This document shows, piece by piece, positions 52,764-64,000 of a stretch of DNA of 64,000 nt. Numbering within the stretch: position 1 is the first letter of the stretch; each line of letters opens with the position of its first letter. The position numbers and the translations under genes were made by a program. Source of the stretch: an uncultured Candidatus Binatia bacterium (GTDB taxonomy: Bacteria > Desulfobacterota > Binatia > UBA9968 > JAJDTQ01); NCBI GenBank assembly GCA_965213675.1, contig OZ243916.1, forward strand, positions 1,504,001 to 1,568,000, in the 5' to 3' direction. A model generated the notes under the pieces. It was not told the DNA's origin. It did no database searches and was given only the letters and a program-made list of their open reading frames with translations.

Positions 52764-53960
52764 ATGACCTTGGATCTACCGACATTGCAGACTGCCGTAG
52801 CCGGCACGGCGGCAGCGTTCCGTTGCGTAACCACCTATCAGCCGGCGGGAGGCGCCGGCGACAAAGTCTTCCCCCCTACCTACGAAGGTGGAAGATACGC
52901 CACGGAGGAGCGAGTCGATCCCGCGACCGGCGAACACCGACCCTGTGTCCTTCTGGATTCCGTGCAGTCGCAGGCAAACCGCATGGAGTTGGCGTTGCTG
53001 GAAGCGCATCGCGCCGGCCAAGTAGCCCTTCCTCTGCTGGTGGCGCGCTTCGATCAGGAAGAACTGCTCAAAAAGTTCACAGTGACCAGCCTTGAAGCGC
53101 CTCACCGTATTGCGGATGCCCTTTTTCGCGACAGCCGCCTGGATGGAATGATCTTTCGCAAGTCAAAGAAGGGGCGAATCCTCGACACTGCAGACGTGCG
53201 GAACGCCACTGATCTGTTTGGTCTGTGTCCGACCGCTTTGGTGTTCGGACTGTGGGACTCGACCGGACCGCGTGGCGGGTTGGGCTGCAAGTTCCAACGG
53301 GCACTCGTGTCTGAAATAGTTGGGTACGACGCGGTGGCGGGGAAGAAGACGTCCAGCCGCATCGACCCTGCGGAGATCATGCGTAGCGCAGCTACGCTCT
53401 ACGAGCGCACGGCTGAAGGCGACGATGCGCCCCGCTGGACCTTGAACAAGGCGGACGGCAGGAAGCTCAAGACCGGACGGCCTTCGGAGGCCAACCACGG
53501 GAACGTCACTCCCACCATTGCGGATGGCGGATTCACCCTGTCGGGAGCCCGGCAAACGACAACCTTGTCGTTGGCGGTCTTGCGACGCCTCCGTTTTCCG
53601 CTCGATGGCGCCGCCACCTCGGACGCCGCTACCGATCTCGCCGCCCGCACCGCACTGGCTGCCATGGGCCTCGCCGCCGGTAGTCTGGCGCGCGTCGATA
53701 CCGACCTCCGTTCTCGCTGCCAACTGTTTGCGGAGCAAGCACCTGTGTGGGAATTGCTCGAGCGTCCTGGTGAAGTGCCACGACAATTTGAACACGGTCC
53801 CGAAGACGCGCTCGAACTGTTGGCGGAGGCGGTCAAGGTGGCCAAAGATGCCGGCCTGCCGTGGGAGGGCCAGATCGAATTGACTCCGTCGCCCGACTTG
53901 GTCGAACTGGTTCGGCGCAGCCAGGAACTGGCGAGCGCTTCGGAGGCGGAGCAAGGCTGA
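52764..53960 (+). CDS. csb1: Type I-G (I-U) CRISPR backbone protein Cas7/Csb1
   Basis: QPAGG.GDKVFPPTY, LLDSVQSQANRME, APHRIADA, PTALVFG.WDS, SRIDP, LRSRC. GGAG RBS before ATG 52764. Confidence 0.9.
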   Translation: MTLDLPTLQTAVAGTAAAFRCVTTYQPAGGAGDKVFPPTYEGGRYATEERVDPATGEHRPCVLLDSVQSQANRMELALLEAHRAGQVALPLLVARFDQEELLKKFTVTSLEAPHRIADALFRDSRLDGMIFRKSKKGRILDTADVRNATDLFGLCPTALVFGLWDSTGPRGGLGCKFQRALVSEIVGYDAVAGKKTSSRIDPAEIMRSAATLYERTAEGDDAPRWTLNKADGRKLKTGRPSEANHGNVTPTIADGGFTLSGARQTTTLSLAVLRRLRFPLDGAATSDAATDLAARTALAAMGLAAGSLARVDTDLRSRCQLFAEQAPVWELLERPGEVPRQFEHGPEDALELLAEAVKVAKDAGLPWEGQIELTPSPDLVELVRRSQELASASEAEQG

Positions 53961-56311
53961 TGTTCGCTCTTGGCATCCGTTACCTGAACGGATGGTCGAT
54001 GGCCGCTGCGGATGGGGCGAGAAAGGAGCGGGCCGAATGGCCGCCGCACCCGGATCGGGTGTTCATGGCCTTGGCCGCGGCTTGGTTCGAGACCGACGGA
54101 GGCGGCTCCGAAGGGGAAGCCCTGCTCTGGCTCGAATCCCTGCCGCCCCCTCAAATCGCCGCGTCGGATGCCGAGTTTCGCGCATCTGTGGTCAGCTACG
54201 TACCCGTCAACGACCCGAGCCTCGGTCGCAAGTTGCCGGCGGGCGGAGGCTTGAACGAGTTGAAGAAGGCCGGACTGGATCAACTCCCGGAGTACCGGTC
54301 GCGCCAGCCCCGCGGTTTTCCTGTCGCCATCCCTCGGGATCCGAAGGTGCACCTGATATGGCCGGACGCCCAAGCAGGTGTGCATCGCGAAGCCCTGGAC
54401 CGGCTGGCTGCCAAAGTCACGCATGTGGGGCATTCGGCATCGTTCGTGCAAGCATGGCTGGAAACCGCCCCGCCCCCGCCCGCGTGGGTTCCGGGGACCG
54501 GCGTCGCGCGTCAGCGCCTGCGTGTGACGAACCCCGGCCGCTTGAAGACGCTGGAAGAGCGCATGAACCGCAACGCCTGGACCGGATACCACGATCTTCG
54601 CCACGAGATCGAGCAGGCCGAGGCCGACATCAAAGCGACGAAGCGCCCGCCCAGGGCGCCTTGGGACTCATTTCCGGATGTGGTTCTGCTGGCCGGCGAA
54701 ATCCAAACCCGACAACATCGCGAGTACGCCGACGCAAAAGCCGCCGACGACGCCGTGGCCGCGGCCAACCTCGTCACCAACCTGGTTGACGAAGCAGCGG
54801 TTGCTGCGGTGCGGACACTGATCGCCCTGGCCAGCAGGAACGGCAGGCCGATCCTGGTCAGCGCGCATGCGTTTGAGGGGCAGGGTCTCAATGCCATTCC
54901 TGCTGCCTTGACGAAACTGCTGAGCGAACGGCTTCGCATCCCGCGCGAGACGACCGTTGTGCAGACGAACATTGTCTCCCACACGGGCGCAGACGGTTAT
55001 GGTCGCCTTGCGCGACAAGCCTGTTTCGACGGCCACATCGAAGCAGGTCAAGAGTACCTTATGGTGGACGACTTCGTCGGCCAGGGCGGTACCTTGGCCA
55101 ATCTGCGCGGCTGGATAGAAAAACAAGGCGGTCGGGTTGTTGGAGCCGTTGCTCTGACCGGCAAACCGTACTCCGCCAGGCTGAACCCTTCGAAGGAGCA
55201 ACTCCATGAACTCCGACAAAAGCACCGGACAGACTTTGAGAAGTGGTGGAAGGCCCACTTCGGCCACGCCTTCGATTGCCTTACTCAATCGGAAGCTCGG
55301 TACCTCGCCCGCTCCCCGGATGTTGACACCATCCGAAATCGCCTTGCTGCGGCAAAGCAAGGTGGAAGTGGATCGAGTCACGGGCGAGGTCCTGGCGAGC
55401 AAAGACAATACGTAAAGGAAATGAAGTCACGTCTGAGAGACCTCTTCCCTGAGGGTGAACCCGTGAGCCTGCGCCCCGTACCGGGCCACTGGCAAGGGTA
55501 CACGGAGGCATTGAAGGAGAGTGTTCCTGAAACACCGGGCTCGGTTTTCGACCCGCGGCTCATTGTCCTCAACATCAAGGGCAAGCGCGTGTCCTTGCCG
55601 GCCACGCTCAAGCTCACCGCGGCTCTGCGCGGCCTGTTGATGCGAGCGTGTGCCGATCAGCCGCCGCCCGAGTGGTTCAGCGGCCATCGCTCGGACGGAA
55701 GGCCAAGCGCCGACCCACATATCGCCCTGATACCCCTTCCCTTCGTCGGCGCCGAACATGCAGACGGTCGCGTCATGGGTTTGGGCCTAGTCCTGCCGGC
55801 CGACCTGGACCCATTGGCAGCCGGCCATTGCCTGGAACCTTTCCTGCACGACCCGGCCACCGGCTTGCCGCGCGAACATCCGTTGTTCGATGGCCAGTGG
55901 TTCGAGTGCGCCATCGAGTTGGAGACACGCGAACGACCGCCGCAGAATCTCCAACCGGCAACATGGACAAGAAAATCGTGCAGTTGGGCAAGCGTAACTC
56001 CAGTAGTCCTGAACCGGCATTTCGACGGGAAGGACAAATGGGCGCGGGCCGCGGACAGTGTGAAAGACGCCTGCCAGCATATCGGCCTGCCCCGCCCCCG
56101 AGAGGTGCTCCTACACCCCGTCTCGCTGGTCGAAAGCGCGCCCCACGCCAGGAACTACCCGCAACTAACCCGCAAGAACGCCGGCGGGGCGCGGAGCCAC
56201 AGCCACGCGGTGATCATCTTTGATGAGCCCGTGCAAGGGCCGGTACTGGTCGGGGCCGGGCGTTTCCGGGGGTATGGATTGTGCCGGCCAATGGATGGGG
56301 GAGGAGAGTAA
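53960..56311 (+). CDS. csb2: Type I-G Csb2 (Cas5-Cas6 fusion) with an internal phosphoribosyltransferase domain, 783 aa
   Basis: N-terminal EWPPHPDRVFMALAAA, YVPVND, VTHVGHSASFV. C-terminal SGH, LPFVG..HADG, W.SVTPVVL, GPVLVGAGRFRGYGLC. The internal ~235 aa contain a PRPP-binding loop, YLMVDDFVGQGGTL. Confidence 0.88.
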   Translation: MFALGIRYLNGWSMAAADGARKERAEWPPHPDRVFMALAAAWFETDGGGSEGEALLWLESLPPPQIAASDAEFRASVVSYVPVNDPSLGRKLPAGGGLNELKKAGLDQLPEYRSRQPRGFPVAIPRDPKVHLIWPDAQAGVHREALDRLAAKVTHVGHSASFVQAWLETAPPPPAWVPGTGVARQRLRVTNPGRLKTLEERMNRNAWTGYHDLRHEIEQAEADIKATKRPPRAPWDSFPDVVLLAGEIQTRQHREYADAKAADDAVAAANLVTNLVDEAAVAAVRTLIALASRNGRPILVSAHAFEGQGLNAIPAALTKLLSERLRIPRETTVVQTNIVSHTGADGYGRLARQACFDGHIEAGQEYLMVDDFVGQGGTLANLRGWIEKQGGRVVGAVALTGKPYSARLNPSKEQLHELRQKHRTDFEKWWKAHFGHAFDCLTQSEARYLARSPDVDTIRNRLAAAKQGGSGSSHGRGPGEQRQYVKEMKSRLRDLFPEGEPVSLRPVPGHWQGYTEALKESVPETPGSVFDPRLIVLNIKGKRVSLPATLKLTAALRGLLMRACADQPPPEWFSGHRSDGRPSADPHIALIPLPFVGAEHADGRVMGLGLVLPADLDPLAAGHCLEPFLHDPATGLPREHPLFDGQWFECAIELETRERPPQNLQPATWTRKSCSWASVTPVVLNRHFDGKDKWARAADSVKDACQHIGLPRPREVLLHPVSLVESAPHARNYPQLTRKNAGGARSHSHAVIIFDEPVQGPVLVGAGRFRGYGLCRPMDGGGE

Positions 56312-63389: not shown

Positions 63390-64000
63390 CCCTTCCGCTT
63401 TACAAGGCCGCGGCTGACCGACCGCCGAGCCGGGCAGCTTCCGGACACGCGGGCTTGTGGTTCGACAAATTCTGCAACCAGTGGCGCCGTGAGCAGTCCA
63501 CCTGGACCATGAAGGGCCGCGACGAGCACAACCCCAAGCCCGAATGGATCAAGACCTTGACGAAAGGAAAGGTCGGTGCAGATTCGCACCTCCGGGAGAA
63601 CGCGTTGCGCGTTGCGGCACTGGTCGACAGCCGTAACGGGTACTTTGAAGTGTTCACCACGACGTCACGCTTCGTAACGGGCTTGGGCCGCAGCCATCCC
63701 ATCGAGAACGGCTTTGCCTGGCATCCCACATTGGGAACGCCGTATGTGCCGGGAAGCTCAGTCAAGGGTCTGGTCTGCTCCTGGGCCAGGCTGGACGCCG
63801 AGCCTCATCCCGACAAACAGCTTCGGGAACGCCTGCTTGGAACGCCCGATAAAGCCGGGAGCCTGTGTTTCCTCGATGCCATCCCCGTTGCACCCGTGCA
63901 ACTCGAAGCCGACGTGATGACGCCTCACTACGCGGGCTGGAGTGTGAATGACCCCCCGGGAGACTGGCGGTCGCCAACACCCATCCCGTTCCTGACTACG
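63386..64000 (+). CDS. cmr6: Type III-B Cmr6, truncated by window end
   Basis: GTG overlaps the cmr5 stop (GTGA). Manual translation gives GHAGLWFDKF, RFVTGLGRSHPIENGFAWHPTLGTPYVPGSSVKG, FLDAIP, DVMTPHY, P.PIPFLT. Confidence 0.9.
   Translation, partial: MTLPLYKAAADRPPSRAASGHAGLWFDKFCNQWRREQSTWTMKGRDEHNPKPEWIKTLTKGKVGADSHLRENALRVAALVDSRNGYFEVFTTTSRFVTGLGRSHPIENGFAWHPTLGTPYVPGSSVKGLVCSWARLDAEPHPDKQLRERLLGTPDKAGSLCFLDAIPVAPVQLEADVMTPHYAGWSVNDPPGDWRSPTPIPFLTT

Follow-up and report, generated by a model that had tools for sequence, protein, structure and literature searches.

The joining of type I-G and type III-B CRISPR genes in a single run of DNA raises the question of whether the two systems work as one and, if so, from where the type III-B part would obtain its CRISPR RNAs (crRNAs). 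The case considered here lies at the end of a 64,000-nucleotide (nt) stretch of an uncultured Candidatus Binatia genome, henceforth the window (C1:1504001-1568000 of a 4.53-Mb, 21-contig assembly, 97.7% complete and with 8% contamination). The original prediction for this DNA comprised nine genes, namely csb1, a csb2 with a phosphoribosyltransferase (PRTase) part, a CARF-HEPN gene and the six genes of a Cmr module, and offered two options: a III-B module inserted into a I-G operon and sharing its crRNAs, or a Cas7-Csb2 particle lacking Cas3 and Cas8 and retained as maturase and as guide-bearing scaffold for the PRTase. Our analysis favors, with good confidence, a complete I-G operon into which a III-B cassette was inserted at the start of cas3g, with crRNAs, maturase and array probably in common.

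All nine plus-strand open reading frames (ORFs) are present and the names given to them are correct, as judged by the ORF listing and by TIGR, Pfam and PADLOC matches, csb2 displaying in addition a weak PRTase match. The genes overlap or abut throughout, in agreement with the tight packing originally described, and the type III-B set is complete (Cmr1, TIGR01894; Cas10/Cmr2, TIGR02577; Cmr3, PF09700; Cmr4, TIGR02580; Cmr5, PF09701; Cmr6, TIGR01898). No convincing plus-strand terminator was found within the operon, and 13 terminator-like sites on both strands compare with 18.1 expected from shuffled sequences. The operon had been expected to run past the window and does so: cmr6 ends at 64528 and is followed by further I-G genes and a CRISPR array, which gives the 13-gene order csb1, csb2, CARF-HEPN-CARF, cmr1, cas10, cmr3, cmr4, cmr5, cmr6, cas3g, cas8g, cas4/cas1, cas2. 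The features are, in window coordinates continued past position 64000 (the locus record L001 covers window 52001-72000, the window coordinate being L001 + 52000):

52737..53960, plus strand: csb1/cas7g, type I-G backbone subunit, 407-amino-acid (aa) ORF (PF09617 6.7e-53, TIGR02570 9.4e-21, PADLOC Cas7g 2e-50)
53960..56311, plus strand: csb2, with Cas5-like N-terminal domain, PRTase-like insert and Cas6-like C-terminal domain (TIGR02165 1.8e-88)
54641..55381, plus strand: PRTase-like module in the interdomain linker of Csb2 (profile A5 of stand-alone homologues, E 4.6e-130)
56295..58061, plus strand: Csx1-like CARF-HEPN-CARF effector, P0122, 588 aa (PADLOC CARF_HEPN_CARF PDLC01840 1.6e-141, TIGR02221, DxTHG)
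58015..59064, plus strand: cmr1 (TIGR01894 9.4e-15, RAMP PF03787)
59061..61028, plus strand: cas10/cmr2, without HD domain, with GGDD cyclase motif (PF22335 3.7e-31, PF12469, TIGR02577 7.5e-39)
61025..62143, plus strand: cmr3 (PF09700 6.8e-59)
62101..62982, plus strand: cmr4 (TIGR02580 3e-49)
62979..63389, plus strand: cmr5 (PF09701 9.3e-29)
63329..64528, plus strand: cmr6, crossing the window end at 64000 (TIGR01898 9.3e-37 on the full 399-aa ORF)
64559-67606, plus strand: cas3g, likely start 64580 (TIGR02621 4.8e-213 over the whole model)
67512-68525, plus strand: small Cas8g, 337 aa (NF049934 4.5e-82, PADLOC Cas8g PDLC01514 2.8e-92)
68580-70292, plus strand: cas4g/cas1g fusion (NF049935 4.5e-237)
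70299-70592, plus strand: cas2, 97-aa ORF, named by position and tblastn conservation beside cas4/cas1 in related loci
70802-75647: CRISPR array, 66 copies of a 36-nt repeat, starting about 210 nt after cas2

Since cas3g, cas8g, cas4/cas1, cas2 and an array come after cmr6, the type I-G set lacks none of its parts, and it encloses the Cmr genes. Cas3g displays helicase domains followed by an HD domain at residues 811-940. The small Cas8g protein is named 'type I-G Cas3-extension family' by NCBIfam and Cas8g by PADLOC, and only from its name and position do we infer that it is the I-G large subunit; a search of its own genome with TIGR04113 (Cas8g1/Csx17) gave no match and is uninformative, as the control genomes were likewise matchless. 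The second option of the original prediction, a I-G system reduced to a Cas7-Csb2 particle serving as maturase and guide-bearing PRTase scaffold, was prompted by a window in which neither cas3 nor cas8 is visible, and a metagenome contig (L124) that carries array-csb1-csb2-cmr1-cas10-cmr3-cmr4 up to its end leaves room for such a reduced form elsewhere. Here, however, full-length cas3g (4.8e-213) and cas8g (2.8e-92) as well as cas4/cas1 and cas2 directly follow cmr6, and the ratios of nonsynonymous to synonymous substitutions (dN/dS) of the first two against the related locus L004 are 0.22 and 0.26. The reduced particle is accordingly rejected for this locus, where we regard it as extremely unlikely.

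The position of the Cmr genes inside the I-G operon can be compared with the arrangement in 80 related genome loci, gathered with an alignment (A1) of 21 Csb2 homologues and searched for the window proteins by tblastn; flanks extend 10 kb and many contigs are short, so that counts of absent neighbors understate the association. In 39 of these loci csb2 is followed by cas3g, 35 going on to cas8g and four without a cas8g match, and a further order, cas3g-cas8g-csb1-csb2, is found in 18. The CARF-cmr1-6 block between csb2 and cas3g is seen in the window and in one of the 80 loci only, L005, a Candidatus Binatia metagenome-assembled genome with an 87% identical Csb2, so the gene order does recur elsewhere. 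At both borders of the block a direct repeat was found:

56312-56328, plus strand: 17-nt direct repeat, left copy, beginning one base past the csb2 stop and spanning codons 1 to 5 of CARF
64579-64595 (L001 12579-12595), plus strand: 17-nt direct repeat, right copy, at the cas3g start

The two copies are identical at 16 of 17 bases, and in the I-G-only relatives L010 and L013 a related sequence occurs just once, at the csb2/cas3g junction. The guanine-plus-cytosine (GC) fraction falls stepwise, from 0.669 in window positions 1-47000 (0.674 in gltB, 0.657 in the largest contig) to 0.634-0.635 in the I-G genes (0.634 for csb1 plus csb2) and 0.603 in the CARF-cmr6 cassette, which agrees with the lower GC than in the flank noted at first. 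Based on the repeat at both borders and on this stepwise drop, we take the cassette to have entered at the start codon of cas3g, the initiation region being duplicated in the process. Contigs from public sequencing runs span the csb2/CARF and cmr6/cas3g junctions without differences, and a contig of an approximately 95% identical strain from a second study spans the csb2/CARF junction. Three observations weigh against this picture. Repeat pairs of such quality are not rare, four with at most one mismatch being found in 18.7 kb where shuffled sequences give a mean of 1.2, and the meaning of the 17-nt repeat comes solely from its placement at both cassette borders; the two junction copies in L005 are more diverged; and the runs in which the locus is present at 0.97-0.98 may come from the very sample behind the window and hence are not independent. 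Within the first option of the original prediction, the insertion of III-B into a I-G operon thus stands, on the 39 of 80 csb2-cas3g loci and the 16 of 17 matching repeat bases, while the sharing of crRNAs is likely on the grounds given below.

Other type III modules occupy the same or nearby places in related loci. The slot between csb2 and cas3g holds in L004 (Csb2 91% identical) a compact III-A-like set at L004 12421-17412, comprising a 507-aa Cas10/Csm1, Csm2, Csm3, Csm4 and a Csm6 CARF-HEPN protein, in which no Csm5 was detected, and in L006 (89% identical) csm1 to csm3, the record stopping within csm3; in L007 a csm set is placed after cas8g. L082 (3596-19811), a Cas8g2-type I-G locus (TIGR04106), has after csb2 first a stand-alone PRTase-like gene, then a gene for a 53% identical CARF-HEPN-CARF protein and finally a III-D-like set (549-aa Cas10, Csx7-like proteins and Csx10). 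A recognizable type III module is therefore present within the flanks of five of the 80 loci (L004-L007 and L082), L015 having a csm1-like fragment and L025 and L071 CARF sequence only. Seen from the side of the cassette, an alignment (A3) of 16 Cas10 relatives led to 80 metagenome loci, whose short contigs make any count of adjacent csb1-csb2 a lower bound. The order CARF-cmr1-cas10-cmr3-4-5-6 is kept in 14 of them, and csb1-csb2 lie beside cmr genes in one, L124 (1-9178), where an array with the same I-G type repeat architecture as that of the window is followed by csb1, an insert-less csb2 and cmr1-cas10-cmr3-cmr4, with no CARF gene before the contig stops. A sample of 400 further genomes from this phylum yielded Csb2 in 18 and Cas10 relatives (E <= 1e-20) in two. 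In one of the genomes of the same class, the Csb2 matches at G076:C1:100465-102037 are broken by stop codons (one TGA, two TAA), and the stretch is probably a decayed I-G locus.

The docking of III-B (window, L005 and L124), III-A-like (L004 and L006) and III-D-like (L082) modules at the csb2 end of I-G operons is a recurrence that fits a role of Csb2 as a general maturase hub. In the assembly of the window, searches with five Cas6 models (TIGR01877, PF01881, PF10040, PF08798 and PF09618) gave no match, although each of them matches in control genomes, and one Cas1, one Csb2, one Cas10 and one CRISPR array were found, which leaves Csb2 as the only Cas6-like protein detected. The original prediction had held that intact cas3 and cas8g together with a separate cas6 just downstream would make the locus two ordinary co-located systems; cas3g and cas8g are there, and a separate cas6 was not found, nor were adaptation genes or an array belonging to the III-B part found in the assembly. 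For this reason the two are not ordinary, self-sufficient neighbors.

The repeat of the array itself is also informative. Its 36 nt are predicted to form a hairpin with pairs 5-24 through 12-17 (-16.1 kcal/mol, z -3.0), followed by 4 unpaired nt and then by 8 nt, so that the predicted 5' handle of the crRNA is AUUGAAGC, 8 nt long, which we take to be close to the tag used by Cmr complexes. Eight I-G-only loci (L008, L011, L013, L014, L035, L040, L043 and L062, compared by blastn-short) have the same 12 bases at the 3' end of the repeat and compensatory changes in the stem, and because they keep the same end and hairpin architecture, the array repeat is a I-G repeat left unchanged by the arrival of the cassette; typing of the repeat, as had been proposed, gave an architecture like that of I-G-only loci. 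According to published measurements, Csb2 of Thioalkalivibrio sulfidiphilus cuts a 36-nt repeat 4 nt past the hairpin base, leaving a canonical 8-nt handle, and its active site is placed in the C-terminal Cas6-like domain (PMC9638904). The sequence and predicted fold of the repeat described here agree with that cleavage rule. Since the five Cas6 models are matchless, the array is single and its repeat is of the Csb2 type, we infer that the I-G and III-B parts likely share one array, its crRNAs and the maturase Csb2. A precedent for Csb2 serving Cmr is the Haliangium ochraceum system, rebuilt with csb2 as 'cas6 homologue' (10.1101/2023.06.23.546230).

It may be argued that the locus instead holds two co-located and functionally separate systems, the Cmr crRNAs coming from an unrecognized maturase, a host RNase or an unassembled array, and the nesting in I-G providing transcription only. 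The assembly is fragmented (21 contigs, 8% contamination), and unassembled DNA may hold a Cas6 or a second array, which counts against a shared supply of crRNAs; divergent Cas6-like proteins could evade five models; and 79 of the 80 related Cmr metagenome loci show no adjoining csb1-csb2, from which it follows that the cassette works with other partners elsewhere. Nevertheless, those five models do match in control genomes, the only array has a repeat ending in an 8-nt tag of the canonical type, the use of Csb2 as a Cmr maturase is published (10.1101/2023.06.23.546230), and related I-G loci have three types of type III module next to csb2 or immediately after it. Taken together, we consider functional separation unlikely.

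The integrity of both parts was assessed next to their order. The I-G and III-B proteins match their family models at full length, and pairwise dN/dS values (Nei-Gojobori method, NG86) lie between 0.12 and 0.28 in 16 of 18 comparisons, which cover csb1, the three parts of Csb2, cas3g, cas8g, cas10, cmr3, cmr5 and cmr6 and leave out, to the detriment of the argument, the two made for CARF and cmr4. Against L004, csb1 gives 0.12, cas3g 0.22 and cas8g 0.26; against L005, cas10 gives 0.27 and the set cas10, cmr3, cmr5 and cmr6 spans 0.26-0.28. The measured operon genes are under purifying selection. The GGDD motif of Cas10 is present in the translation, and G413, G414, D415 and D416 are conserved without exception among 16 homologues. 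Family scans gave no HD match for an N-terminal nuclease in Cas10, which begins with Cmr2_N; Cmr2 without HD domain is a known form. The III-B Cas10 of Vibrio metoecus is reported to lack an HD domain, so the missing domain does not exclude membership in III-B here.

The effector gene of the cassette appears equally intact. The model of its product has a mean predicted local distance difference test (pLDDT) score of 83.7, and its best fold match is Marinitoga Csx1-Crn2 (8y6z, 1.4e-14), with a Csm6 fold match as well. The protein displays a DxTHG motif (TIGR02549) and a HEPN motif R-N-x3-H-H, which falls within the R-x4-6-H definition of the RNase motif; no variation is seen at R381, N382, H386 and H387 among 25 homologues, and the DxTHG motif is invariant too. 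The label CARF-HEPN used at first holds for both of these domains and omits a second, C-terminal CARF domain, which makes the protein a CARF-HEPN-CARF protein. In view of this conservation, we regard as very unlikely that the cassette is a recent, inactive or decaying passenger while I-G does all the work. Such a passenger would agree with the lowest GC of the locus (0.603) and with rarity in the phylum, Cas10 relatives being found in two of 400 other genomes, but all seven cassette ORFs are of full length against their models, the GGDD and HEPN residues are retained, dN/dS against L005 is 0.26-0.28 for cas10, cmr3, cmr5 and cmr6, and the same junction is found in an approximately 95% identical strain from another study.

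On the preferred reading, a nested cassette with a shared crRNA supply, we hypothesize the following course. A self-contained III-B cassette, consisting of the Csx1-like sensor-RNase and cmr1-6, would have arrived without Cas6, adaptation genes and array. The pre-crRNA would be cut by Csb2 4 nt past the hairpin, leaving the 8-nt 5' handle AUUGAAGC, and the same crRNAs would load both the I-G Cascade (Cas7g, Csb2, Cas8g and Cas3g) for attack on DNA and the Cmr complex for binding of transcripts. The HD-less Cas10, through its GGDD motif, would then make cyclic oligoadenylate (cOA), which would activate the CARF-HEPN-CARF RNase, and Cas4/Cas1-Cas2 would provide spacers to both complexes. The concept itself is not new, as type III modules drawing on crRNAs of type I systems are already known; what the locus and its relatives add is the nesting of the cassette and the scar left by its insertion, the repeated arrival of varied type III cassettes next to csb2 in I-G operons, and the PRTase-bearing Csb2. 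The flanking duplication of the cas3g start offers a rare view of how a cassette can be spliced in without breaking an operon, and operons of this kind are compact natural settings for the study of dual DNA and RNA targeting from one array.

In the Pyrococcus furiosus Cst/Cmr locus a separate Cas6 is said to serve all complexes, and the 'type I-G' of the paper on it is reportedly an older label, not the Csb2-bearing subtype; the III-B system of Marinomonas mediterranea reportedly has its own RT-Cas1 (reverse transcriptase-Cas1) adaptation. The former, an archaeal case, resembles the present one in that a type I (Cst) and a III-B (Cmr) module are reported to share one locus (PMC4666368). In M. 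mediterranea the III-B system is reported to give redundancy to a type I system, which there is I-F and encoded at a separate locus (Silas et al. 2017, PMC5576922), and this redundancy suggests a functional rationale for coupling type I and III-B. Closer to the present case, the H. ochraceum III-B system of Steens et al. was rebuilt from cmr1-6, csb2 and a mini-array (10.1101/2023.06.23.546230); its effectors are a SAVED-CHAT protein and a caspase-like protease, whereas a Csx1-like RNase is found here, and the account consulted describes no nesting of cmr genes between csb2 and cas3g such as that of the window. The I-G system of T. sulfidiphilus (Shangguan et al. 2022, PMC9638904) has, like ours, Csb2, Cas7, Cas8g, Cas3, a Cas4-Cas1 fusion and a 36-nt repeat. 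It uses the large Cas8g1, in contrast to the variant of about 300 aa found here (NF049934/PADLOC Cas8g), and its III-B system is a separate locus with its own array, in contrast to a nested cassette; the term 'phosphoribosyl' has no occurrence in the text as consulted, whereas Csb2 here carries a PRTase-like insert. As to the effector, Csx1/Csm6 proteins and Marinitoga Csx1-Crn2 (8y6z) have in common with it the order CARF, helical domain, HEPN, as well as DxTHG and an R-x4-H HEPN motif, but the extra C-terminal domain is a CARF-like Rossmann domain here and Crn2 in the Marinitoga protein.

The insert in Csb2 is a more open question than the hybrid operon. The Csb2 model TIGR02165 matches in two pieces (model positions 1-284 and 242-492), and between them profile A5, built from 26 stand-alone homologues, matches at positions 2-247/248 (E 4.6e-130). 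Because A5 matches near full length between the two Csb2 pieces, a whole PRTase-like protein has been spliced into the Csb2 linker, which joins the two domains and is placed around residue 260 in the published account of the T. sulfidiphilus system (PMC9638904). In the structure prediction the insert, with pLDDT 75-94, is the sole well-predicted part of a full-length Csb2 model with a mean of 55.7. A Foldseek search with this model assigns the insert a type I PRTase fold, XPRT, OPRT, APRT, PurR and ComF leading the matches (E 2.5e-4 to 2e-3, TM-score on the target 0.26-0.44). Its phosphoribosyl pyrophosphate (PRPP)-binding loop aligns with the APRT loop of Thermus thermophilus; D403, D404, G407, Q408, G409, G410 and T411 do not vary among 21 fused forms, nor do their equivalents among 26 stand-alone forms, and the module has a conserved helical C-terminal extension of about 60 residues. 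On Csb2, Pfam PF00156 scores 17.8 bits, below its cut-off of 26.3, and for this reason we name the module PRTase-like and not a member of PF00156. The stand-alone PRTase-like protein of L075 matched no Pfam family, the PADLOC models queried with the insert gave no family at all and thus no retron or Shos model, and a PDB sequence search with Csb2 and Cas8g yielded weak PRTase-loop matches or noise only. Clusters named PRTase appear in a protein atlas at 0.85, which serves as a lead only. A full-text search found no published description of a PRTase-like insert in Csb2, although classification papers and supplementary tables may mention one.

The module is abundant, under purifying selection and repeatedly tied to I-G. 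Among scored candidates there are at least 368 clusters of fused, near-full-length proteins and at least 1427 clusters of shorter proteins, the best 120 of which are 58-81% identical. The 80 Csb2-related genome loci comprise 48 with the fused form, 19 with Csb2 without the full insert and 13 with a stand-alone gene, and 10 of these 13 have I-G genes in their flanks. In L075 (2766-12515), L078 (10028-19350) and G110/L172 (5361-15512), loci of the Cas8g1/Csx17 kind, the stand-alone gene comes first in the order PRT-cas3g-cas8g1-cas7g-csb2, and in L067, L071, L074, L081 and L082 the stand-alone protein and the insert share 66-70% identity, against only 26-33% for the local Csb2. Since most fused loci are without type III genes, the PRTase-like module is to be counted with I-G, not with the III-B cassette. 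Against a strict link to I-G stand three of the 13 stand-alone loci (L066, L070 and L079), with no I-G gene in their flanks, and the genomes G027 and G310, two of the three other phylum-sample genomes with a PRTase-like gene, in which there is no Csb2 match and no I-G gene within about 10 kb. Between the PRTase-like gene and cas3g, L075 encodes a protein of 358 aa that contains a restriction-endonuclease domain (Mrr_cat). A more distant, 55% identical homologue in G027 (L170, G027:C11, 2-2642) is not part of a CRISPR locus and lies two genes downstream of a Helicase_C_2 (DinG/XPD-type) gene; ComFC-type PRTases pair with helicases, and the arrangement in L170 resembles that. In L173 (G025:C300, 3005-4843), the Csb2 model matches in pieces 1-147 and 252-491, about 600 nt apart in one 639-aa frame, while the PRTase profile gave no match at 1e-20 in the G025 genome, and a different insert may occupy the same Csb2 linker.

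What the module might do can be approached by analogy with PRTases of other defense systems. The retron-Eco11 effector (PMC12746101) and ShosTA, PsyrTA and Ophion OpnC (10.1101/2025.09.30.679545) are described as defense-associated PRTases, the published modes of action being PRPP depletion and disturbed purine metabolism. These systems and the present one have in common a PRTase-fold protein attached to an immune sensor; in the present family that protein is either part of a CRISPR subunit or the product of a neighboring gene. One conceivable though doubtful role is that of an enzymatic arm tethered to the crRNA-protein complex, activated by target binding and consuming PRPP or altering nucleotide pools in the manner published for the retron-Eco11 and ShosTA PRTases. 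If this were true, the module would sit with Csb2 at the 3'-hairpin end of Cascade and give type I an abortive-infection or metabolic output, and one crRNA set would here drive DNA degradation by Cas3, RNA degradation through Cmr, cOA and Csx1, and PRTase action. Alternatively, the module may sense a nucleotide (PRPP or (p)ppGpp), as its fold relatives PurR and XPRT do, and gate crRNA maturation. A PRTase-like effector or sensor that rides on Cascade would be a new kind of type I accessory function.

Metagenome contigs at 85% likeness reach a several-fold higher depth over L001 2669-3335, the insert, and 16676-18676, the cas4/cas1-cas2 region, with up to 14 contigs at one site of L001, as if these segments alone were present, in nearly the same form, in many members of the community. 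In X7, a high-depth contig joint from 3425 to 17118 was seen together with several short joints, which most likely stem from other community members with conserved PRT and cas4/cas1 segments.

With regard to the gene starts, the operon start first given as 52764 falls within the longest csb1 ORF, nine codons past the beginning of that ORF at 52737. The longest csb2 ORF (53861-56311) begins with GTG 53861, and its start is most likely ATG 53960, because an alignment of 21 homologues gives a consensus whose first residue is the counterpart of M34. For the CARF gene the ORF spans 56220-58061, and GTG 56313 is another possible start. The left neighbor is the glutamate synthase large-subunit gene gltB (47796-52487, minus strand, four Pfam domains), so the operon is indeed adjacent to gltB, as had been said, but diverges from it and does not follow it in the same direction. 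Beyond the array, a lone extra repeat copy is found at window-equivalent 76095-76130 (C1:1580095), about 450 nt past the last array repeat, and within the array two consecutive repeat-spacer units at L002 709-860 (window-equivalent 72709-72860) show 100% identity across 76 nt, a sign that a spacer was duplicated.

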